This document shows, piece after piece, positions 4,031 to 33,305 of a stretch of 36,873 nt of DNA. The notes under the pieces were generated by a model. It was not told the DNA's origin. It saw only the letters and a list, made by a program, of their open reading frames with translations, and made no database searches. The first letter of the stretch is position 1, and each line of letters opens with the position of its first letter. Both the position numbers and the translations under genes were made by a program. The stretch comes from Thermovirgaceae bacterium (GTDB lineage Bacteria > Synergistota > Synergistia > Synergistales > Thermovirgaceae). The stretch lies in assembly GCA_046542505.1 (NCBI GenBank), contig JBKHBH010000010.1, forward strand, positions 1-36,873, written 5' to 3'.

Positions 4031-5005
4031 ATGGCAGAAAAGGACATCATTCTGGACGTGAGAGACCTTTCCACCTGGTTTTACACAGAAGAGGGCATTG
4101 TCAAGGCCCTTGATGGCGTGAGCTTTTCCCTGAAAAAAGGGGAGCTTTTGGGAATCGTCGGAGAGACGGGATGCGGAAAGTCCGTCACCGCTTCGAGCAT
4201 TATGAGGCTGATCCCCCAGCCGCCCGGGAAAATCGCGGGCGGACAGGTATGGTTCGAAGACAGGGACCTGGTTCGGCTCAAGGAACAGGAGATGCTCAAA
4301 ATCAGGGGTTCGGAAATCGCCATGATCTTTCAGGATCCCATGAGCTATCTCAATCCGGTTCTCTCAGTGGGGTTTCAGGTCATGGAAGCCGTCATGGCCC
4401 ATGGAGGCACATCGGAAGAACAGGCGAGAGACAGGGGTGTGGAGATGTTCCGGAAGGTCAACCTTCCGGACCCTGAAAAGTCGCTGGGGCGGTACCCGCA
4501 CCAGTTTTCCGGCGGGATGAAACAGAGAGTCATGATCGCCATGGCCCTGGCCAACAATCCGAAGCTCCTCATAGCCGATGAACCGACCACAGCCCTGGAT
4601 GTCTCGATCCAGGCCCAGATATTGTCTCTCATAAAGCAGATGCAGGAGGAGTTCGGCAGCAGCGTCATCATCATCTCCCACGATTTGGGTGTCATCGCGA
4701 CCATGGCCGAGAAGGTGGCTGTCATGTATGCCGGTGGGATCGTCGAATACGGGACTGTGGAGGACATTTTCGACAAGCCCCTTCATCCGTACACGCGGGG
4801 GCTGATCGGGGCGATTCCGCGTCTGGACAGGGACCAGGAGTACCTTGAAATTATTCCGGGCAATCTTCCGAACCTGCTGGACCTGCCTGACGGGTGCAAG
4901 TTCCGTGAACGCTGTCCCATAGCCAGGGATATCTGTGCCGAGGTCCGGCCTCCCGTAATCGAGGTTGAAGAGGGACACGAGGTGGCTTGCCATGCCTATT
5001 CTTGA
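4031..5005 (+). CDS. Peptide ABC ATP-binding protein (DppD/OppD type)
   Basis: Walker A GETGCGKS, FSGGMKQR, ADEPTTALD, C-terminal Cys cluster. Confidence 0.95.
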   Translation: MAEKDIILDVRDLSTWFYTEEGIVKALDGVSFSLKKGELLGIVGETGCGKSVTASSIMRLIPQPPGKIAGGQVWFEDRDLVRLKEQEMLKIRGSEIAMIFQDPMSYLNPVLSVGFQVMEAVMAHGGTSEEQARDRGVEMFRKVNLPDPEKSLGRYPHQFSGGMKQRVMIAMALANNPKLLIADEPTTALDVSIQAQILSLIKQMQEEFGSSVIIISHDLGVIATMAEKVAVMYAGGIVEYGTVEDIFDKPLHPYTRGLIGAIPRLDRDQEYLEIIPGNLPNLLDLPDGCKFRERCPIARDICAEVRPPVIEVEEGHEVACHAYS

Positions 5006-5957
5006 AGCGCAAAACCTGACAAAGCATTTCCCCGTGGACAAGGGGATCATCTTTCCGAAAATCGTCGGGCACGTCCGGGCCGTCGACGGGATTTCCTTTT
5101 CCGTGGAAGAGGGACAGACTTTGGGTATCGTCGGGGAATCGGGAAGCGGAAAGACCACCCTGGGACTTTTGGTCATGAGGCTTTTGCAGCTGACAGCGGG
5201 CGACATTCTTTTCAGGGGCGAAAGCATCACCGACCTGGAGGGGGCGAAGAAGAGGCTTTTCCGCCGAAAGGCCCAGATCGTTTTCCAGGACCCCTTTTCT
5301 TCGCTGAATCCGAGGATGATCATCAGGGATATTATCGGCCGCGCCCTCAGGGTACAGGGGGTTCACGACAAGGAGGAGATTTCCGAGCGGGTGGGGAAAG
5401 TCCTCAGGGAAGTGGGTCTGCGGGAAGAACACCTGAACCGGTATCCTCACGAATTCTCTGGAGGGCAGAGGCAGAGGATCGCCGTAGCCAGGGCGCTGGT
5501 GACCAATCCCGACTTCATACTTCTTGACGAGCCCACTTCCGCCCTTGACGTTTCCGTCCAGGCACAGATTCTGAACATGCTGAAAAAACTCCAGAAAGAG
5601 AAAAACCTTACGTATTTGTTCATCACCCATGATCTCAGTGTCGTCAAGCACATGAGTCACAAGGTGCTCGTCGTCTACCTCGGGAGGGCTATGGAATACG
5701 CTAATAAGGCCGAGATTTTTTCGGAACCTCTCCATCCCTATACCCGGGCGTTGCTTAAAAGCATCCCCAAGCCTGCTGTGACGAGGGAGAATATCGCAGA
5801 GAAAGTCATACAGGGTGACATACCGAGCCCCATGAACATGCCATCAGGGTGCCGTTTCCACACGAGGTGCCCGCTGGCTGACGAAAAATGCAGGCAGAAA
5901 GAACCTTCCTGGCGAGAGGTTCGCAGGGGCCATTACGTGGCGTGTCACAAGGTTTGA
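4992..5957 (+). CDS. Peptide ABC ATP-binding protein (DppF/OppF type)
   Basis: GESGSGKT, FSGGQRQR, LDEPTSALD, GCRFHTRCP...VACH. Likely start is ATG 4992 (MPILEA). Confidence 0.95.
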   Translation: MPILEAQNLTKHFPVDKGIIFPKIVGHVRAVDGISFSVEEGQTLGIVGESGSGKTTLGLLVMRLLQLTAGDILFRGESITDLEGAKKRLFRRKAQIVFQDPFSSLNPRMIIRDIIGRALRVQGVHDKEEISERVGKVLREVGLREEHLNRYPHEFSGGQRQRIAVARALVTNPDFILLDEPTSALDVSVQAQILNMLKKLQKEKNLTYLFITHDLSVVKHMSHKVLVVYLGRAMEYANKAEIFSEPLHPYTRALLKSIPKPAVTRENIAEKVIQGDIPSPMNMPSGCRFHTRCPLADEKCRQKEPSWREVRRGHYVACHKV

Positions 5958-22368: not shown

Positions 22369-25300
22369 ATGGTGTTTCCCAATGTTGAAGTTGGTCTGCA
22401 TCTGAGGAAAAAACTTGTGTCTCTCGCAGTAGCCGTCACTTTTCTGGGTATCGGCCTTTTCTTATGGTCCTCGTGCCGGGTGAAAGAAAACGTGCTGGCG
22501 GACCTGATCAGGACGGCGGAAGAAGTCGCAGGAGCCTTTTCAGTCAGACAGATCAGGGAATTGGGAAAAGCGGAACAGACCGGGCCTCGGTGGAAGCTTT
22601 TCGTGCGCCAGCAACGGTATCTCGAGAACACGCTGAAGGTTTTCCCCGAAGTTTCGGAGATTCGTGTCTATCTTCCTTCCAGTGGGGGGCCAGTCCTTGT
22701 TTCGGGAGAAGAAAAAACGGCAAGTCCCCATGAAACGCCTGATACGGTGAAAACTGTTTTCAAAACAGGCAGGGCTGGGCTGTCGGGAACTCTCGGGATT
22801 ACGGGTTCCGTAAGCCCTTTCCATGTGTTTGTCCCCCGGGGAGATTCCCATATCGGGAAAACGGCGGCCGTAGTCGAGGTGGAATTCCGGCAAAAGCCGC
22901 TGATACGTTACCTGGGGGAGTCTTTTTTTGCTCACGGCCTTGTTACAGTGGTCTTTCTGCTCGTACTCTTCTTCGGCGCCGGGGGGATGTCCAGGCTTTG
23001 TGACACGTCACAGGCAACATCAATGACGTGGTTCTGCCGCAACGTTGAGGCCCTTGCCGTACTGGCTGCCGGGGTGTGCTTCACGGTCTTCGCGGCGTAC
23101 CATATTTATCAAACGGAAACGACCGCCCGTGAAAGAGCTTTTGAAAGGCTTGCGCGGGCTGAAAACAGCAAGCTGCTCAGCACAATGAGAAATATCGAAA
23201 ACTATCATATGGAGGCGCTGGGGCGTTTTTTCGAAAGCAGCGTCCAGGTGGACATCGCCGAATTCAGGGAATTTTCGGGTTTTATGATGGAAGAACCTTC
23301 GCTGTGGGGATGGGGCTGGGCTCCTTCTTTAAGAAAAGGGCAAGAAAAAGCCTTTGAAATACGGGCCGCGGTGTTGGGGGTAAAAGATTTCAGAATCAGG
23401 GAACACGGCTCCCCGGATGTTCCTCTTCCTTCCGGCTCCGACAGCCGGCTTTACCCGCTGCTTTTTGCAGGTCCTGCCGGGAAAGGGCTTCCTGCCATCG
23501 GGCTTGATTTTGGTTCCGTTCCGGATTTTCAAAAGGCCATCACGACCGCTGTCGAGTCTGGATTCAGTACGGCAACGGCACCATTGCGATTTTCCGTCGG
23601 AAAGAATGCCTTTTCGGGAATTCTTGTCTTTCGGCCCGTCTATTTCGGTGGAGGTTCTCTGCGTGGTCTTGTGATCGGCTTTCTGGATGAAGGAATCCTG
23701 CTATCAAGCGGAGCCGGCGCCGGCAAGGAAGCTGCATTTCCCCGAAGCCTGCGGTTTTTTCAGGTGGACCCTGGCGGGAATGCCCTTCTCGTTGGAAGCA
23801 GAGGAAGCCTGAACACCTCTGGCAACGGGAGCGGCATTACTGAAGATCCCAGGGTCATTTCCCTTCTTCATGCATTCGGAAAGACCTATGTGCTGGAAAC
23901 CTTTCCGGATTCGGCCTTCGCCGGACTTTACCCTCTCAGGGGGTGGATTCTGGCGGTTTTTGGAGGCCTTTTCCTTTCGGGCCTGCTTGCCACATTGACG
24001 GGTTCGCAGATGTGGAAGCGCCGCAACCTTGCCCTGCAGGTCGAAGAAAAAACAAAAGCATTGGGGGAAAGTGAGGAACGATACAAGAGCATATTCGAAA
24101 ACTCCCACGCCGCCATGCTCGTCATCGATCCCGACGACGGGAGCATTATCGACGCAAATCCTGCATCGGAAACTTTCTATGGCTGGACGTGCAGTGAACT
24201 GCAGACCATGAAGATCAGTGAAATCAACACCCTCCCCCCGAAAGAAGTCCTGGCGGAAATGAGAAGGGCCAGGGAAGAACAACGCACCTTCTTTTCCTTC
24301 AAGCATCGACGGTCCGATGGATCGGTCGTCGACGTAGATGTCTACACCGGCCCCGTTTTAATGGAGGGGAAAACGCTCTTGTTTTCCATTATTCATGATG
24401 TGACAGCGAGGCACAGGGCCGAGGATGCCCTGCGGGAAAGCGAACAGCGGCAGAATGCCTTCATCAATACTCACGAGGACATGATGTTTGTCAAGGATGA
24501 CCAGTTTCGGTATGTCATCGTGAACGAAGCAACGGCAAGGTTTTTCGGTAGATCGAAAGAGGAGATTCTTGACAGGTCGGATTTCGGGTTGATGGCGGAA
24601 GAAGCAGCCGCGCTTTGTTATGAATCGGATCTCAGAGCGTTGCAGTCGGGAAAAACCGTTGTCGTTGAAGAGCCTGTAGGGGAAAGGGTTTACGAGACAA
24701 CGAAATTTCCCGTTCCCCTGAAGGGAGGCAAAACCGGCCTGGGAGGGATCATCCGGGATGTGACGGAAAGGCGTTATTTCGAAAACCAGTTGCGGCATTT
24801 CGCGACCCACGATGAGCTGACCGGGGTTGCCAACAGGACTCTCCTGCGCGATCGCATTCATCAGGCCGTCCTTTTTGCCCAAAGGGCCCAAAGACATGTG
24901 GCTGTCCTGCTGATCGACCTGGATCGCTTCAAGATTCTCAACGACAGCCTTGGGCACAGTTTCGGTGACGAACTGTTGCGCGCCGTGGCGAGGCGCCTGG
25001 AAACAATTGTGAGAGAAGGAGACACCGTTGCACGACTCGGCGGTGACGAGTTTGTCATCCTTCTTGCCCATATCGCTCGGGAAGAGGACGTTCACACGAT
25101 TGTGTCCAAGATACTCGAAGAGACATCGAGACCCTACGTGATCAATAGACGTGCCGTGACAGTTACCGCAAGCATCGGTTTCAGCCTTTCCCCCCGCGAC
25201 GGAAGCGATTCCGAGACGCTGATCAGGCTTGCCGACGTCGCCATGTACGAGGCAAAAAGGAAGGGCAGGAACGTGGTGCAGCAATATATGGAAGGGATGG

Positions 25301-26100
25301 ACAGGAGCGTGATGGAGACCCATGAAACGGAAGCGGATCTTCGGGGTGCTATCGACCGGGGAGAGTTGTTTCTCGAATTCCAGCCTGTCGCGGAGGTGGA
25401 TTCCGGACGCGTCCAGGGAGTCGAATCACTGATCAGGTGGAGGCATCCGAAATACGGTGTCGTTCCTCCGGCGCACTTTATTCCCCTGGCGGAGGAGACG
25501 AGGCTGATCGTTCCGATCGGGGAGTGGGTTCTCAGGCAGGCCTGTGGTTCCATAAAGAGACTGGAGCAGTCCGGTTTTTCGAAGGTTCCCGTCTCGGTGA
25601 ATCTTTCGGCCGTCCAGTTCCGGTCGGAAAGCATTGTTGAAACAGTGAAGAGCTGTCTCAGTGAACATTCCATCGAACCGCAACTCGTCATTCTGGAACT
25701 CACGGAAAGTCATTTTGTGCATGACCCTCGGGGGGCTGCGGAAACCATGCAGAGACTTTCAAAGCTGGGAGTCAGGTTGGCCCTTGATGATTTCGGCACA
25801 GGATATTCCAGCCTCAATTATCTTCGGCGTTTCCCGGTAAATGCCCTGAAAATTGACAGGTCCTTCGTGCACGATGCCATTGTCGATCCCAGTGCGGCGG
25901 CCATTGTGAGCAGCATTGTTGCCATAGCCCATAGCCTGGGGCTGAAAACCATCGCCGAAGGTGTGGAAACAGAAGAACAGCTTGCCTTTGTGAAAGGCTG
26001 GGGATGCGACGCCTACCAGGGATACCTTTACAGTAAACCTCTCATGTTTGAGGACCTCAAAGAATTTCTGCGAAAAAAAGGGACCGGATTTTCCATATAA
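22369..26100 (+). CDS. Membrane c-di-GMP cyclase/phosphodiesterase (sensor-CHASE-PAS-PAS-GGDEF-EAL)
   Basis: TM segments; CHASE-like EFREF...WAP...AIGLD; two PAS folds; HDELTG, RLGGDEF with I-site REGD; ESL, DDFGTGYSS, KIDRSF, AEGVE. Confidence 0.92.
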   Translation: MVFPNVEVGLHLRKKLVSLAVAVTFLGIGLFLWSSCRVKENVLADLIRTAEEVAGAFSVRQIRELGKAEQTGPRWKLFVRQQRYLENTLKVFPEVSEIRVYLPSSGGPVLVSGEEKTASPHETPDTVKTVFKTGRAGLSGTLGITGSVSPFHVFVPRGDSHIGKTAAVVEVEFRQKPLIRYLGESFFAHGLVTVVFLLVLFFGAGGMSRLCDTSQATSMTWFCRNVEALAVLAAGVCFTVFAAYHIYQTETTARERAFERLARAENSKLLSTMRNIENYHMEALGRFFESSVQVDIAEFREFSGFMMEEPSLWGWGWAPSLRKGQEKAFEIRAAVLGVKDFRIREHGSPDVPLPSGSDSRLYPLLFAGPAGKGLPAIGLDFGSVPDFQKAITTAVESGFSTATAPLRFSVGKNAFSGILVFRPVYFGGGSLRGLVIGFLDEGILLSSGAGAGKEAAFPRSLRFFQVDPGGNALLVGSRGSLNTSGNGSGITEDPRVISLLHAFGKTYVLETFPDSAFAGLYPLRGWILAVFGGLFLSGLLATLTGSQMWKRRNLALQVEEKTKALGESEERYKSIFENSHAAMLVIDPDDGSIIDANPASETFYGWTCSELQTMKISEINTLPPKEVLAEMRRAREEQRTFFSFKHRRSDGSVVDVDVYTGPVLMEGKTLLFSIIHDVTARHRAEDALRESEQRQNAFINTHEDMMFVKDDQFRYVIVNEATARFFGRSKEEILDRSDFGLMAEEAAALCYESDLRALQSGKTVVVEEPVGERVYETTKFPVPLKGGKTGLGGIIRDVTERRYFENQLRHFATHDELTGVANRTLLRDRIHQAVLFAQRAQRHVAVLLIDLDRFKILNDSLGHSFGDELLRAVARRLETIVREGDTVARLGGDEFVILLAHIAREEDVHTIVSKILEETSRPYVINRRAVTVTASIGFSLSPRDGSDSETLIRLADVAMYEAKRKGRNVVQQYMEGMDRSVMETHETEADLRGAIDRGELFLEFQPVAEVDSGRVQGVESLIRWRHPKYGVVPPAHFIPLAEETRLIVPIGEWVLRQACGSIKRLEQSGFSKVPVSVNLSAVQFRSESIVETVKSCLSEHSIEPQLVILELTESHFVHDPRGAAETMQRLSKLGVRLALDDFGTGYSSLNYLRRFPVNALKIDRSFVHDAIVDPSAAAIVSSIVAIAHSLGLKTIAEGVETEEQLAFVKGWGCDAYQGYLYSKPLMFEDLKEFLRKKGTGFSI

Positions 26101-27765: not shown

Positions 27766-28869
27766 ATGTTGACTGACCTTCTGACTGCTTTAGCCGTTGT
27801 GATTAACGGAATTCCCCAGGGGATCCTCGCCTTGAGTTTCGGTTTCGCCGCCCTTCCGACGTCGATTGCCTTTCTGGTTGGCGTCGCTGGTTCGCTGGCC
27901 TTCAATTCTGTGGCGACCATTTCCTTCCAGGCGGAAACGATAACCCTGGCGGGCACGATGGGACAAAATATCGGGGAAAGACTGAGCCTTGTCTTCTGGG
28001 GAGCCGTCTTTTTGCTGATCCCTTCCCTCCTGGGTCTGAACGAAGCCATTGTCGCCTTCATCGGGCCGGTGATCGTGACGTCCATGATGGCCGGCGTAGG
28101 CATCATGCTGGCCTACGTTTCGATTGAAATGCTGCGTTCCGAGAAGTATTCCGGAGTGACCTCCATGATCACGGCCCTGGCAGTCTGGTTAGTTACACAG
28201 GACCTTGCCTATACCATCATCATTTCCGTGATTGTTGCCACCGTAGCCTACAATTTCCTGAAACGCTATCCCGGCCTTGTGAAAGATGAGCCCGTGGCGG
28301 ACCTTGAAAACGAACGTTTCCGCTTCGGGAACATCCAGTGGAAGTTCTGGACGAACCGCAGGATCCTCCTGGGAGCCCTTGCATTGGCTTGTCTTAATAT
28401 CGGTGCGAACATCAGTTTCGGAAAGATTACCGGCAGCATCGCCGGGGTAGAGACAAACATCGATCATCTGGCGATCTACTCCAGCCTGGCCGACATAGGA
28501 TCGACGCTTTTCGGAGGCAGTCCTGTTGAAGCCATCATTTCGGGGACCGCTACGGCTCCCAATCCTCTTCGCTCGTCGGTGATGATGATGGCCATCATGG
28601 CGGCGATCCTCCTGTTTAAGCTGCTTCCCGTTATCGGAAGATACGTTCATCGCTCTTCTATCGCGGGATTTTTGTTCATCCTTGGAACGTTCGTGACCTT
28701 TGCGTCCAACATACAGGGTGCCATAGCTATGGTCCCGGCCTTTGAGGGGCCCTTCGGGTTCAGCCCATGGGGTATGGTCATCGGGGCGACGGTGCTTGTC
28801 TCAGCGAGGTGGAATCCATTTTACGGCCTTGTCGCGGGGGTTGCGATAAGGATGGTGTTCGGACTATGA
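27766..28869 (+). CDS. NCS2/AzgA-like nucleobase permease
   Basis: Hydrophobic multi-TM; SFQAET, SMMAGVG, ADIGSTLFGGSPVEAIISGT; coupled to a PRTase. Confidence 0.72.
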   Translation: MLTDLLTALAVVINGIPQGILALSFGFAALPTSIAFLVGVAGSLAFNSVATISFQAETITLAGTMGQNIGERLSLVFWGAVFLLIPSLLGLNEAIVAFIGPVIVTSMMAGVGIMLAYVSIEMLRSEKYSGVTSMITALAVWLVTQDLAYTIIISVIVATVAYNFLKRYPGLVKDEPVADLENERFRFGNIQWKFWTNRRILLGALALACLNIGANISFGKITGSIAGVETNIDHLAIYSSLADIGSTLFGGSPVEAIISGTATAPNPLRSSVMMMAIMAAILLFKLLPVIGRYVHRSSIAGFLFILGTFVTFASNIQGAIAMVPAFEGPFGFSPWGMVIGATVLVSARWNPFYGLVAGVAIRMVFGL

Positions 28870-29414
28870 GCAACGGTTTTTATGAACTGGAAGTGGCAGG
28901 TCTGAAAAGACATCTGCCGAAGGTTCGTGTGGGAGAGAACCTGGTGATCGCCTCTTTCGTAATGCTCGGCGACACGGACCTGGTCGAAAGGTCCGCTGAT
29001 GAACTGGTGATGCGTCTGCCCCGTGAAAGGATCGAGATGTTGGTTTGTCTCGAGGCAAAGGGCATACCTCTGACCCATGCCATTGCAAGACGACTTGGCG
29101 TCAATTACGTGACGGTCAGAAAATCTGTAAAGGGGTACATGGAAGACCCCCTCATCGAAGAAGTCAAGTCGATCACTACAAAGGAAAAGCAGATTCTCGT
29201 GCTTGACGGCGTCGACAGGGCGAAGATCACGGGCAAAAAGGTGTGCGTCGTGGATGACGTGGTTTCTACTGGAGGCTCCATGAAAGCCGTCCAACGCTTG
29301 CTCGAGCGGGCGGGGGCGACAGTGGTCTGCAAGGCTGCCGTTCTGCTTGAGGAGGGCGGTTATGACGGGGCGGACCTGATTTACCTTGAAAGGTTGCCCG
29401 TTTTCGCAGGGTAA
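28866..29414 (+). CDS. Purine phosphoribosyltransferase (Apt/Xpt-like)
   Basis: LEAKGIPL, VRKSVKGYM, PRPP motif VVDDVVSTGGS; ATGA overlap at 28866. Confidence 0.88.
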   Translation: MSNGFYELEVAGLKRHLPKVRVGENLVIASFVMLGDTDLVERSADELVMRLPRERIEMLVCLEAKGIPLTHAIARRLGVNYVTVRKSVKGYMEDPLIEEVKSITTKEKQILVLDGVDRAKITGKKVCVVDDVVSTGGSMKAVQRLLERAGATVVCKAAVLLEEGGYDGADLIYLERLPVFAG

Positions 29415-29489: not shown

Positions 29490-30206
29490 TTATTTCGGGG
29501 CTTCTTTCCGGGAGCTCTTTCCCGGTGGTGCCTTTTCCAGGACTTCGTTGATCCAGTTCCAGACGGGCGGAAAAACCCTTGCAGTTTCTCCCGGCCTGGG
29601 AACCATGAAAACGAAGGCTTTTTCCTGGTCCGGGACAAAGGCGACGTGCCGGAGGTCTCCAGGCCTATCGAGTTTTTTCTTCAGTTCAAGCAGGGCATCA
29701 CGTATCTTTTGGTCTTGATAGTAGAGTGTGAATGTCTTCCCTCCCCATTCAAACTGTTCACTTTTAAGGCTGGACTTGTTAGTGATTTTCGAGGCCCGGA
29801 AATTTTCGTATTCATTTTGAATGATGTGTCCCTCGGATATTTTCCCGTGAGCGTCTTTTGCAAAATAAAGAGTGACAAAAAGCCTGTCCCATTTCCTCAA
29901 GTATCTGGAAACGGGGTAATAGAGCAACGTATGCCGGGCGAGTAGTGTAATCGTTGCGTCCACCCGGCGGATGAACTGGTTTTTCCGGGGAACGAGATTT
30001 GCGTGATACCCGGACTGTCCTCCGATGGTGGTAAACGTCTGGTCCCTGGGATTGAGTGTGTCCACGAGGGCGTTGAATGCCGAGAGGTGAATCCGCTTGT
30101 TCCTGCGTCCTCCCCAGAAGAAACAAAGGGAGACCAAGACCGTGGCGGCGATAAAAAGCAAAAAAAGGGGCTCTTGGGTAATGGGTTGGCTTGACACATC
30201 CGACAT
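29490..30206 (-). CDS. Membrane-anchored hypothetical protein (possible DUF1682/CCDC47-like)
   Basis: N-terminal TM (LFLLFIAATVLVSLCFFW) followed by GGRRNKRI; last gene of the cstA operon. Start is ATG 30206 or GTG 30197. Confidence 0.7.
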   Translation of the reverse strand: MSDVSSQPITQEPLFLLFIAATVLVSLCFFWGGRRNKRIHLSAFNALVDTLNPRDQTFTTIGGQSGYHANLVPRKNQFIRRVDATITLLARHTLLYYPVSRYLRKWDRLFVTLYFAKDAHGKISEGHIIQNEYENFRASKITNKSSLKSEQFEWGGKTFTLYYQDQKIRDALLELKKKLDRPGDLRHVAFVPDQEKAFVFMVPRPGETARVFPPVWNWINEVLEKAPPGKSSRKEAPK

Positions 30207-30223: not shown

Positions 30224-31168
30224 TCAGGCTGTCTGTCCGGGGCCAAATCCCAGAGGTCCGGTAAGGTCGGTATCCATGATATAACATTCGGGTTCATCTT
30301 GTCGGTACAAGGAGACCCGACTCAGTTCAATGCCCGGCATCTCCTTGAGAAGTTCTCTTTCCACTTGGTCTGCGGCATATTCGTTCTCGTCTGTAACCTT
30401 GTTTACAAAAAGCGTTCGCAAGGGAAGTTCCAGCTCTTTCGCCCCAGTGACAAGTCTCTGGGATTCTTTCAGGGAAAGCATGTCGGGATTGCAGACGAGG
30501 GCGATGTTGTTGTCCGGTGACTGCAGGAAGGACTGCACTGTTTCGTAGCGTTTTGTCATCTCCCGAAGTTTCCGCATCACCATATCTTCTTCCTCCGTAT
30601 AGGCGAGTTTTGTTTCCTTCCCGTCCTTTTCCCCGGTGATGTTATGTATGGTGTACCGCTTGTCCAGGATCTGGAGCCGTATGTCAATAAGCCTGTCCAG
30701 CCAGGCCAGCGTAACCTTCGGTAGTGCCAGTATACGAAGGGTAAGCCCCGTCGGTGGTGTGTCGATGATGATGTAATCGAAATTTTTCTGTTCTTCCCGA
30801 AAAAGGTGTTCCATGGCCACGAGGGCTGCATACTCCTCAACCCCGGGCGAGTACCGAAGAATTCGGAAATACTTGTCCATGTTGAAGGCGCGCGTATAGC
30901 TGTAAACTTCCTCGAGGATTCCCACGCTTGTTTTGAGATATTCCTGGGCGCATTTTTCCAGGTCCGTTTCCTGAAGATAGAGGGATGTCTTTTTGTATCG
31001 TGTTATCTTGTGCGAAAGCCGTTCACCGAAAATGTCCCCCAGGTTGTGGGCTGGATCAAAGGAAGTTACGAGCACCCTGTTGCCTCGCTCAGCCAGTTGC
31101 CACGCCGCCGCGGCCGACAGGGATGATTTCCCGACACCACCTTTTCCCGTAAAAAAGACAGACTTCAT
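30224..31168 (-). CDS. Single-domain ArsA/Get3(TRC40)-family ATPase
   Basis: Deviant Walker A GKGGVGKSS, switch I DPAHNL, PGVEE, switch II DTPPTG, VNK. Confidence 0.9.
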   Translation of the reverse strand: MKSVFFTGKGGVGKSSLSAAAAWQLAERGNRVLVTSFDPAHNLGDIFGERLSHKITRYKKTSLYLQETDLEKCAQEYLKTSVGILEEVYSYTRAFNMDKYFRILRYSPGVEEYAALVAMEHLFREEQKNFDYIIIDTPPTGLTLRILALPKVTLAWLDRLIDIRLQILDKRYTIHNITGEKDGKETKLAYTEEEDMVMRKLREMTKRYETVQSFLQSPDNNIALVCNPDMLSLKESQRLVTGAKELELPLRTLFVNKVTDENEYAADQVERELLKEMPGIELSRVSLYRQDEPECYIMDTDLTGPLGFGPGQTA

Positions 31169-31182
31169 GGATCCACCTCTTT

Positions 31183-31497
31183 CTAGTCAATATCCAGCAG
31201 GCCGATAATCTCCGCCATCGAATCTGACGCTGCGTGGGCACGGGCGTTGAGCACCTTGATCTCGTGTTCAAGGTGGGGAAGAAGCTCTGCGGCAATAAAC
31301 GACGGGGGGGCCGGTATTCCGGTAAAAGAGCCCGTCAGGAGCAGGACAAAAAGGTTTTCGAGTTCCTTGACTTCGAAACGGGTCAGTTCTACGACTTTTT
31401 CCCTGTGGGATGATCCCATGATTGAAAAGAAAGAGAGGGCTTTCTCCAGCGAAGCCCGGAAAAAGCCCTTCCCTTCCTTGTTGTGAATGTCCGTCAA
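31183..31497 (-). CDS. Small cstA/ArsA-associated protein (cory-CC-star-like)
   Basis: ELENLFVLLLTGSFTGIPAPPSFIAAELLP resembles the small proteins found between cstA and ArsA-family genes. TTG 31497 has GGGAG upstream. Confidence 0.7.
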   Translation of the reverse strand: MTDIHNKEGKGFFRASLEKALSFFSIMGSSHREKVVELTRFEVKELENLFVLLLTGSFTGIPAPPSFIAAELLPHLEHEIKVLNARAHAASDSMAEIIGLLDID

Positions 31498-31511: not shown

Positions 31512-33233
31512 CTATTTCCCCTGTTCCAGGGGCTGATTCCTGTATTTGAGGAAGTCGTACATGAAGATCAAGTTCAGGACCAGCATGGCGATTTCGATGA
31601 CGAGCACTGTTATACCCGTTGCAGGGTCGGACTTGATGGTGGCCGGCAGTGCCACGGCGCTGAACCAGATGATAGCAGCCGTAACGGTGATCCACAGCAG
31701 GTAGGCCGGAATGGTGCAGATCGCCGTGGATTTGCACTCAAGTCGCTTCGAGACCCATGCCGCGCCGGTCAGAAGCGTGATGGAAGCAATAAGCTGGTTT
31801 GCCGAACCGAAGGACGGCCAGAGGAGCGCGAAATTCCCGCTCCACGCGAGGTAGATCCCGATGGCTGCCGGAATGATGGAGGCCACCCAGGGGTTGGTCA
31901 AAAAGTTGTAAGCTCCTGACCCTTTTTCCTTCAGCGGCATCGCGATTTCCGAAATGGTGTACCTCGCGAGACGGTTTGTCGTATCAAGGGTGGTCATGGC
32001 AAAAGCGGCAACCCACATTCCAGCGATCACTTGGACCAGGCTTGTGGGAATGAAACCAAGCCAGGTGCTTGCCACCATCCGGGCGAAAGAATGGGAGAAC
32101 ATGACGGCGTTCGGGTAGGAAGCCGACATGGACTTGACATACTGGTCGCCCCAGTTCGCCACGGTGATGCTCTCTCCGGCATCCTGCATCAGCTGGAGGC
32201 CGAATCCCGCCACGGCTGCCACTACTAGGGTCGAGAGGAAACCTTCCGTCAACATGCCCCCGTAGCCGATAGGAAGACCGTGGCTCTCCTTTTCCAACTG
32301 CTTGGAGGTTGTTCCGGACCCGACCAGGGAGTGGAAGCCCGAAAGAGAACCGCAGGCGATAACCAGGGGAATCACGGGCCAGAAAGGACTCGGCTTTCCT
32401 CCCGTCACGATCGGTGCGAAGGACGTAAAAGCCGGTGCAGTGAAGCCGTGGAAACTAAAAATTGCCGCAAGGGCTCCAAGGGCCAGACCGAAATACAGTA
32501 GCCAGGAATTCAGGTAGTCCCTCGGCTGCAACAGGACGTCCACGGGGATGGCCGCGGCGATGATGATATAGAAGAACAGGATGACCATCCAGGTACTGTA
32601 GCTCATCTCGACGGGCCAGAGGGCACCGCCGTATATCGAGGCGGCGAGCAAGATGACACCGATAAACGTCGCAGCAACGAGGTTCATCTTCACCCGGTAC
32701 ATCAGCACGCCCAGAACCAGTGCTGCGAGGACCATCAGGAAAAATGCCGTCGGGACTTTCGGGTCACCCACGAAGGTTTTCCCGATGACCGCACCGAAAG
32801 CCGCGATAACCAGGATCAAAAGGAAGAAGACGAGCCAGTAAAATAGTTTCCCGGTGCGTTTCGTGATGACGTCGGAGGCGACGAACTGGACGGAGCGGCC
32901 GTCGTACCTGACCGAAGCCATCAACGAAAGATAGTCGTGGACGGCGCCGATGAAAATGTTGCCGAACCACACCCAGAGGAGACCGGGGACCCAGCCCCAT
33001 GCCATGGCAACGACGGGACCGACGATCGGCGCAGCTCCAGCGATGGACGCGAAGTGATGGCCGAAAAGCACAGGCGGTTTCGCCGGGACATAGTCGACGC
33101 CGTCAAAAAGCCGTGTCGACGGCGTTGCGTTTTCGTCAGACGCCTTGACCACTTCTCTCTCCAGTTTCTTGCCGTAAGTCATGTAGAGGAGTATGTAAAT
33201 GGCAAGCCCCGCGACTACAATCAGAGTAGTCAT
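31512..33233 (-). CDS. cstA: Carbon starvation protein A family transporter (peptide/pyruvate)
   Basis: DGVDYVP, LFGHHFASIAGAAPIVGP, GAVHDY, LLQPRDY, IACGSLSGFHSLVGSGTT, TTLDT, LWPSFGSANQL; ATG 33233 with GGGAGG. Confidence 0.95.
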   Translation of the reverse strand: MTTLIVVAGLAIYILLYMTYGKKLEREVVKASDENATPSTRLFDGVDYVPAKPPVLFGHHFASIAGAAPIVGPVVAMAWGWVPGLLWVWFGNIFIGAVHDYLSLMASVRYDGRSVQFVASDVITKRTGKLFYWLVFFLLILVIAAFGAVIGKTFVGDPKVPTAFFLMVLAALVLGVLMYRVKMNLVAATFIGVILLAASIYGGALWPVEMSYSTWMVILFFYIIIAAAIPVDVLLQPRDYLNSWLLYFGLALGALAAIFSFHGFTAPAFTSFAPIVTGGKPSPFWPVIPLVIACGSLSGFHSLVGSGTTSKQLEKESHGLPIGYGGMLTEGFLSTLVVAAVAGFGLQLMQDAGESITVANWGDQYVKSMSASYPNAVMFSHSFARMVASTWLGFIPTSLVQVIAGMWVAAFAMTTLDTTNRLARYTISEIAMPLKEKGSGAYNFLTNPWVASIIPAAIGIYLAWSGNFALLWPSFGSANQLIASITLLTGAAWVSKRLECKSTAICTIPAYLLWITVTAAIIWFSAVALPATIKSDPATGITVLVIEIAMLVLNLIFMYDFLKYRNQPLEQGK

Positions 33234-33275
33234 ACAATTCCCTCCCTTTTTATTAAACATAAAGGCTATGCTATT

Positions 33276-33305
33276 AATTTACGCCCCGCGTGGGGTTTTT
33301 GTCAA
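33276..33305 (-). promoter_or_regulatory. Putative cstA promoter
   Basis: Minus-strand TTGACA (33305-33300), N18, TAAATT. Confidence 0.5.

Follow-up and report, generated by a model that had tools for sequence, protein, structure and literature searches.

The window analysed here is a stretch of 36,873 nt from the genome of a Thermovirgaceae bacterium (contig JBKHBH010000010.1 of assembly GCA_046542505.1), and the subject of this report is a gene on its minus strand, at 29490..30206. This gene encodes a protein of 238 amino acids (aa) that is predicted to be membrane-anchored, with a modeled fold like that of CCDC47, a eukaryotic translocon subunit. It is the last of four co-directional minus-strand genes, in the order cstA, a cstX-type gene, an ArsA/Get3-family ATPase gene, and the target itself. 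A module of this composition was described by Castillo and Saier (2010; Int J Microbiol, PMC2963123), and the target protein is referred to here by their name for its last component, CstY.

The stop codon of the gene occupies 29490-29492. Its start is assigned to the ATG at 30206, which has AGGAAAGG upstream of it and lies 17 nt past the ATPase stop codon; homologues in a 67-member alignment begin at this same ATG. A 265-aa open reading frame (ORF) from 30287 was dropped as a candidate for the gene: it overlaps the end of the ATPase gene, and both the homologues and the ribosome-binding site favor the ATG at 30206. Residues 13-31 of the translation are hydrophobic and are followed by FFWGGRRNKRIHLSAFNALVDTL, FTTIG, ITLLARHTLL, and WDRLFVTL, these being the strings quoted, in this order, in a preliminary description of the same DNA.

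The 29490-30206 ORF is a genuine gene rather than a chance ORF. Among 404 candidates, 117 protein clusters match it at E <= 1e-39; all source names given for these are “hypothetical protein,” and none has a precomputed Pfam domain. The profile of the 67-member alignment finds 238 representatives among 1.84 billion proteins at E <= 0.001, and the 150 of these that were listed are all short, prokaryote-type proteins; lengths in the family run from 200 to 240 aa. No relatives of at least 428 aa were found at E <= 10 among 8,000 candidates scored, which is weak evidence of their absence, and the divergent member P0238, used as the query, retrieved four close relatives only, none of them carrying a Pfam tag.

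The ATPase gene (30224..31168, minus strand) encodes a single-domain protein of 314 aa, with matches to PF02374 (181.1 bits) and TIGR00345 (182.9 bits, against a cut-off of 135). Its P-loop (GKGGVGKS), switch I (DPAHN), and switch II (DTPPTGLT) are intact and are invariant in 41 sequences; to judge from these motifs, the enzyme is catalytically intact. It has no CxxC motif. In switch II (residues 136-143), Pro139 and Leu142 are invariant in the 41 sequences. Get3 and ArsA carry DTAPTGHT at this position, and the histidine is thus replaced throughout the module ATPase clade. The genome, which is 93.5% complete, contains one full-length ArsA-family gene (three other matches span the P-loop only) and one copy of cstA. 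Since this is its single Get3/ArsA-family gene, the ATPase would be dedicated to the cstA operon.

Gaps of 14 and 17 nt separate the last three genes, and one of 92 nt separates cstA from cstX. The cstX-type gene (31183..31419, minus strand) encodes 78 aa, predicted to form a two-helix hairpin whose loop, G..G.P.PP, is invariant; the model places the helices at residues 4-32 and 40-74, with a predicted local distance difference test score (pLDDT) of 73.7, and the mean column identity of a 46-sequence alignment is 69%. No Pfam family matches CstX, and a weak NF041419 match is far under its cut-off. The NCBIfam name “cory-CC-star” was considered for it and dropped (E 5.8e-4; 19.8 bits, against a cut-off of 80). 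The module opens with cstA (31512..33260, minus strand), which encodes a CstA-family permease of 582 aa (PF02554, 428.5 bits).

Two putative control elements lie in this region. Just upstream of cstA is a match, by consensus only, to a sigma-70-like promoter (33276..33305, minus strand: TTGACA, an 18 nt spacer, and TAAATT). The cstA-cstX gap contains a GC-rich stem-loop of 14 bp with a T-rich run after it (31436..31469, minus strand), found by consensus scan only, which may be a partial terminator or attenuator. Such an element could reduce expression of the three accessory genes relative to that of the permease.

Distribution of the module

When one genome per species was scanned by pattern, 221 stretches encoding a CstY relative were found, mostly in Spirochaetota and Desulfobacterota-type metagenome-assembled genomes. 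The best 80 of these 221 loci were fetched, and their gene content was assessed by tblastn with the window proteins. The ATPase gene is found upstream and on the same strand in 78 of the 80 (in L043 just a short piece matched), cstX in 75, and cstA in 73; wherever a neighbor is missing, the target lies at or near a contig end. The preliminary description had placed a Get3-like ATPase next to the target and had suggested looking for co-occurrence with cstA and ArsA-family genes, and on both counts the loci bear it out. The convergent downstream genes of the window, for adenine phosphoribosyltransferase and a possible permease, are shared only with the closest relative (L001), and the conserved unit is therefore the four genes.

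Among 101 genomes of the same phylum, the CstY family is present in 13 (8 of 41 genera), and a CstX-type match in 41, including all 13 of those with CstY. In 28 genomes (e.g., G029, G030, and G052), the CstX-like small ORF is more distant (E 1e-7 to 1e-10) and there is no CstY match. CstY is an optional, patchily distributed add-on to a commoner CstA/CstX pairing.

A few loci depart from the usual arrangement. In five Syntrophales/Deltaproteobacteria-type loci, a second CstY-type gene lies ~130 nt downstream of the first (L054:6796-7359, L058:6790-7353, L062:6797-7360, L055:5237-5800, and L060:3703-4266), giving tandem paralogues. In P0249 (323 aa, from a 3.5-kb contig), an ArsA-like C-terminal third (PF02374 positions 180-285) and a CstY-type protein are encoded in one ORF, which may reflect either a true fusion or the loss of a stop codon. 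CstY forms that are fused or longer were not found elsewhere, although this is weak evidence. At L053, ~2.2 kb separate cstA (782-2524) from cstX (4807-5046), and another gene may be inserted there.

Predicted fold of CstY and the CCDC47 link

CstY is predicted to begin with a single transmembrane (TM) helix (residues 13-31; 30114..30170, minus strand), preceded by just 12 residues. This is followed by a putative alpha/beta domain (residues 35-225; 29532..30104, minus strand) and by a short basic tail (residues 226-238; 29493..29531, minus strand), which is poorly conserved, varies in the alignment, and is modeled with low confidence (pLDDT of the last block 55). The C-terminal domain is predicted to face the cytoplasm because of the basic GGRRNKR that follows the TM helix (positive-inside rule). 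In the 67-member alignment, P13, F15, G32, and R34, around the helix, are invariant, and the 26 invariant columns include IGGxxGYHA, DAT, R91, D107-R108, H127, W154, and H187. The invariant or near-invariant polar residues are H68, N70, D83, R91, D107, R108, H127, and H187, of which R91, D107, and H127 are kept at >= 90% in a wider alignment of 116 sequences.

An AlphaFold2 model, made without templates from the 67-sequence alignment, has a mean pLDDT of 88.9 and a predicted template modeling score of 0.82. It consists of a long helix, unbroken over residues 13-51, and an alpha/beta domain up to residue 225, closing with a helix at 207-225 and a low-confidence tail of 13 residues.

CCDC47 (PF07946, formerly DUF1682) is a eukaryotic subunit of the PAT (protein associated with translocon) complex and of multipass and SND3 translocons (PDB 6W6L, 7TM3, 7TUT, and 9I78). 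Against PDB, the CstY model had three Foldseek matches at E <= 0.001, each in a ribosome-translocon entry: 7tm3_4 (E 9.1e-9, query TM-score 0.62), 9i78_4 (E 2.1e-7), and 6w6l_7 (E 8.4e-5). The next match was at E 5.8e-3, and those ranked lower are type III secretion chaperones and Bet v 1/START-like proteins. Where the preliminary description took the lack of a significant profile or structural match as grounds for giving up the link to CCDC47, the structural match, at least, is significant.

The matched chains (and 7tut_4) are read as CCDC47 for three reasons. They are present in metazoan multipass, TMCO1, and fungal SND3 translocon entries, all of which are described as containing CCDC47; among the translocon accessory proteins in these descriptions, CCDC47 alone has a large globular cytosolic domain; and the range aligned on the translocon chain, 135-404, ends at residues 401-404, next to the start of the CCDC47 helical arm, which is reported to span Asn399-Lys474 (PMC8745461). 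On this reading, CstY residues 35-225 align to the CCDC47 globular domain. CstY resembles CCDC47 in having one TM helix and, after it, a large globular domain that is predicted to be cytosolic and of CCDC47 fold, and its model argues strongly for a match to the TM-plus-globular core of that protein.

Sequence comparison gives weak leads to the same family. PF07946 is the top Pfam match of CstY (17.9 bits, E 0.0019), with residues 17-136 aligned to profile positions 7-132 of 326. It is matched by 61 of the 67 aligned members at E <= 1 (best E 1.9e-4); these are not independent trials, because the members are kin. Among more distant representatives, 14 of 109 match it at E <= 0.01, many of them over the TM helix and juxtamembrane stretch only. 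In an Atlas language-model search, the nearest Pfam-named cluster was fungal CCDC47, at 0.79 for the whole of CstY and 0.78 without its TM helix; both values are below the bar of 0.9, making this a lead only.

Several observations weigh against a relationship with CCDC47. The PF07946 score of 17.9 bits is below the gathering cut-off of 27.7, as is the best score seen for any CstY family member (22.7 bits). When the TM helix and basic motif were cut from the window protein and from 34 of the 68 locus copies located, just one of the 35 remaining domains matched PF07946, at E 0.12; the Pfam signal is thus owed mostly to the TM region. A whole-genome PF07946 search found the locus at E 0.028 and an unrelated place at E 0.02, so that the match is at noise level, and the family was also matched in 3 of 14 control genomes. 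No CCDC47 chain was found among 177,635 PDB sequences at E <= 10, whether with the profiles of 67 and 116 members or with P0144 alone. Identity to the translocon chains in the structure alignments is only 9-12%, and the naming of these chains as CCDC47 goes by entry contents, architecture, and residue numbering. Two hallmarks of the family are missing as well: with 12 residues before its TM helix, CstY has no counterpart of the lumenal N-terminal domain, and its model, ending at the 207-225 helix and short tail, has none of the long C-terminal helical arm.

Because it fails the Pfam cut-off and these two hallmark features, CstY is not filed here as a member of PF07946, and sequence homology between CstY and CCDC47 is not demonstrated. 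The preliminary description had proposed a prokaryotic CCDC47 homologue from a likeness of motifs judged by eye. Of this proposal, the fold likeness stands (E 9.1e-9) and the sequence link does not (17.9 against 27.7 bits; 1 of 35 without the TM helix); the motif likeness itself lacks statistical backing, with PF07946 under its cut-off and dependent on the TM helix, and no CCDC47 chain recovered from PDB.

These results raise the possibility that CstY is a real accessory of the CstA module whose likeness to CCDC47 is one of analogy, an alpha/beta sandwich on a membrane tether having been reached independently. The lack of a significant sequence signal after TM removal, the empty profile searches against PDB sequences, and the low identity in the structure alignments would all fit such a history, and the type III secretion chaperones and Bet v 1/START-like proteins among the lower-ranked matches show that its sub-motifs are common. 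Against this, the order and topology of the two proteins agree from the TM helix across the entire globular domain, and the top Pfam match and the nearest Pfam-named Atlas cluster are the same family. Convergence seems unlikely. We infer homology instead, and CstY, as modeled, is probably a remote, stripped-down relative of CCDC47 in fold.

Possible roles in the CstA module

The explanation that seems best as a whole, and that is favored here with modest confidence, is that CstY is a CCDC47-fold, membrane-tethered docking or scaffold subunit of the CstA/ATPase module. Predicted to cross the inner membrane once, with only a very short N-terminal stretch outside and an alpha/beta domain of ~190 residues in the cytoplasm, it would tether the ATPase dimer and the CstX hairpin to the cytoplasmic side of multipass CstA, and ATP binding and hydrolysis would then gate, energize, or stabilize CstA. 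This explanation draws on the predicted fold, the conserved operon, and a dedicated ATPase with invariant catalytic motifs, and it has precedents in ArsA with ArsB and in TtfA with MmpL3 (see below); the physical contacts of CstY and its effect on CstA are presumed. A complex prediction (two ATPase chains, CstX, and CstY residues 1-230, with CstY scored) gave no verdict (0.00 against a mark of 0.32, without controls) and carries no weight either way. Against this reading, 28 of the 41 CstX-bearing genomes in the phylum sample show no CstY, which is therefore dispensable for many CstA/CstX modules.

As a second possibility, the Get3-like ATPase and CCDC47-like CstY might be a chaperone or assembly system for CstA (or CstX), a prokaryotic counterpart of the PAT or GET (guided entry of tail-anchored proteins) type, rather than transporter subunits. 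Both proteins, by family or by fold, fall among eukaryotic membrane-protein biogenesis factors; the ATPase serves only the cstA operon, other Get3/ArsA-family genes being absent from the genome; and CstA is a large multipass protein, as are the clients on which CCDC47 is reported to act at the translocon (PMC9816642, PMC7505659). CstY, however, is without the helical arm by which CCDC47 is described as reaching the ribosome exit tunnel (PMC7505659). No match to Asterix, the obligate partner of CCDC47 in the PAT complex, was found among the six window proteins scanned (the rest of the genome was not searched for it), and CstX, the other small protein of the operon, belongs to no Pfam family. 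Many genomes with CstA and CstX have no CstY, and several control genomes, including that of E. coli, have CstA. The stoichiometric position of the gene in the operon would suit a subunit equally well. A dedicated assembly system is the main functional rival of the scaffold reading, and appears doubtful.

A more far-reaching form of this idea is that CstY and CCDC47 share ancestry, and that CstY, the Get3-type ATPase, and CstX make up a prokaryotic assembly device dedicated to CstA and related to the machinery from which the PAT scaffold arose. This, too, must be considered speculative, and it is improbable on present evidence.

It is very improbable that CstY is instead an independent ligand-binding or catalytic module, such as a sensor of the transported substrate, and neither scaffold nor chaperone: the pattern of its invariant polar residues (listed above) is typical of a binding or active site, but no enzyme or ligand-binding family in Pfam or NCBIfam matches its sequence, and the strict adjacency of the ATPase gene (78 of 80 loci) favors joint action.

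Elsewhere in the window, two other membrane proteins were noted. The gene at 27766-28869 (plus strand) encodes a multi-helix membrane protein of 367 aa with no Pfam or NCBIfam family; it overlaps, at an ATGA, the adenine phosphoribosyltransferase gene (28866-29414, plus strand; NF005592, 241 bits), and could be a nucleobase permease of a kind not yet described, linked to salvage. The gene at 22369-26100 (plus strand) encodes a membrane protein of 1243 aa, in which PAS-like repeats, a GGDEF motif, and an EAL-type domain can be seen by eye in the translation; it looks like a cyclic di-GMP (c-di-GMP) signaling protein.

Comparison with known systems

The closest precedent is the module itself, which the preliminary description had not recognized as a published one. 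From gene context in SEED, Castillo and Saier (2010; PMC2963123) reported 26 cases of cstA with a single-domain arsA homologue of ~300-330 aa, usually accompanied by a ~90-aa protein that they called CstX and, in five archaea, by a single-TMS (transmembrane segment) protein of ~210 aa, CstY; CstX was the commoner of the two. In their proposal the ATPase energizes CstA, CstX is a linker, and CstY is auxiliary and possibly non-essential. The target fits this CstY by size (238 aa), single TMS, and gene context rather than by comparison with the archaeal sequences: it clusters with cstA, a small cstX, and a single-domain arsA, and, as in the published module, there are no arsenic genes. It differs in being bacterial, from a Synergistales-type genome and with relatives in 221 species genomes, where the published examples are archaeal. 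Archaeal clusters resembling CstY are found in the Atlas at 0.90-0.97, which is a lead only. The accessible text of the 2010 paper gives neither a fold for CstY nor a link to CCDC47, no other relevant literature on CstY or CstX was found among the matches listed, and no bench test of the cstA-cstX-arsA-cstY module was found in the literature searched. The module and the name have thus been known since 2010; what is new is a bacterial CstY with, as modeled, a minimal core of CCDC47 type.

The genetic partners of CCDC47 and CstY are different, Sec61 and the ribosome for the first and the CstA permease and ArsA-type ATPase for the second. CCDC47 is regarded as a eukaryotic invention, and prokaryotes are stated, in the accessible text of PMC9630114, to lack PAT components. 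If the two proteins do share ancestry, that printed statement would be contradicted, and the picture would be altered by the existence, across many bacteria and archaea, of a protein with this core encoded beside a Get3/ArsA-type ATPase and a multipass permease. The history of the CCDC47 fold would extend into prokaryotes, where its role could be probed in a genetically simple setting, and the 2010 module would gain a structural context. All of these implications rest on a predicted structure, and without the link the target is a further member of a known but uncharacterized operon. No report of a prokaryotic CCDC47 homologue, or of a fold link between CstY and CCDC47, was found in the literature covered, which excluded subscription journals and supplements; nor was any found on CCDC47 in an Asgard context.

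The pairing of an ArsA/Get3-family ATPase with membrane proteins is itself familiar, from Get3/TRC40 with Get1/Get2 (WRB/CAML) and from ArsA, described as working with the ArsB carrier. The membrane partner linked to the module ATPase is CstA, not ArsB. Get1/Get2 are placed in the literature with the Oxa1-type insertase group, and CstY does not resemble them. Farkas et al. (2019; PMC6593721) describe a single-domain bacterial group of these ATPases, including some from Spirochaetes and Synergistetes, that is without the Get1/2/4-binding residues; the accessible text of their paper does not mention carbon starvation genes.

A last parallel is with TtfA of mycobacteria (trehalose monomycolate transport factor A; PDB 6T84), which is reported to have an N-terminal TM helix, a cytoplasmic domain of ~205 aa, and a disordered tail, to bind MmpL3 and be required for its transport function, and to be restricted to mycolate producers (PMC6593404); no ATPase partner is described for it in the accessible text. 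Searches of PDB sequences with the CstY family profiles showed no sequence relation to TtfA, and no literature naming both TtfA and CCDC47 was found. The structural match of TtfA to CstY is far weaker than that of CCDC47. CstY has the same architecture as TtfA, all the same, and a related predicted fold, and the two together hint at a broader class of single-pass, cytoplasm-facing accessory proteins of transporters.
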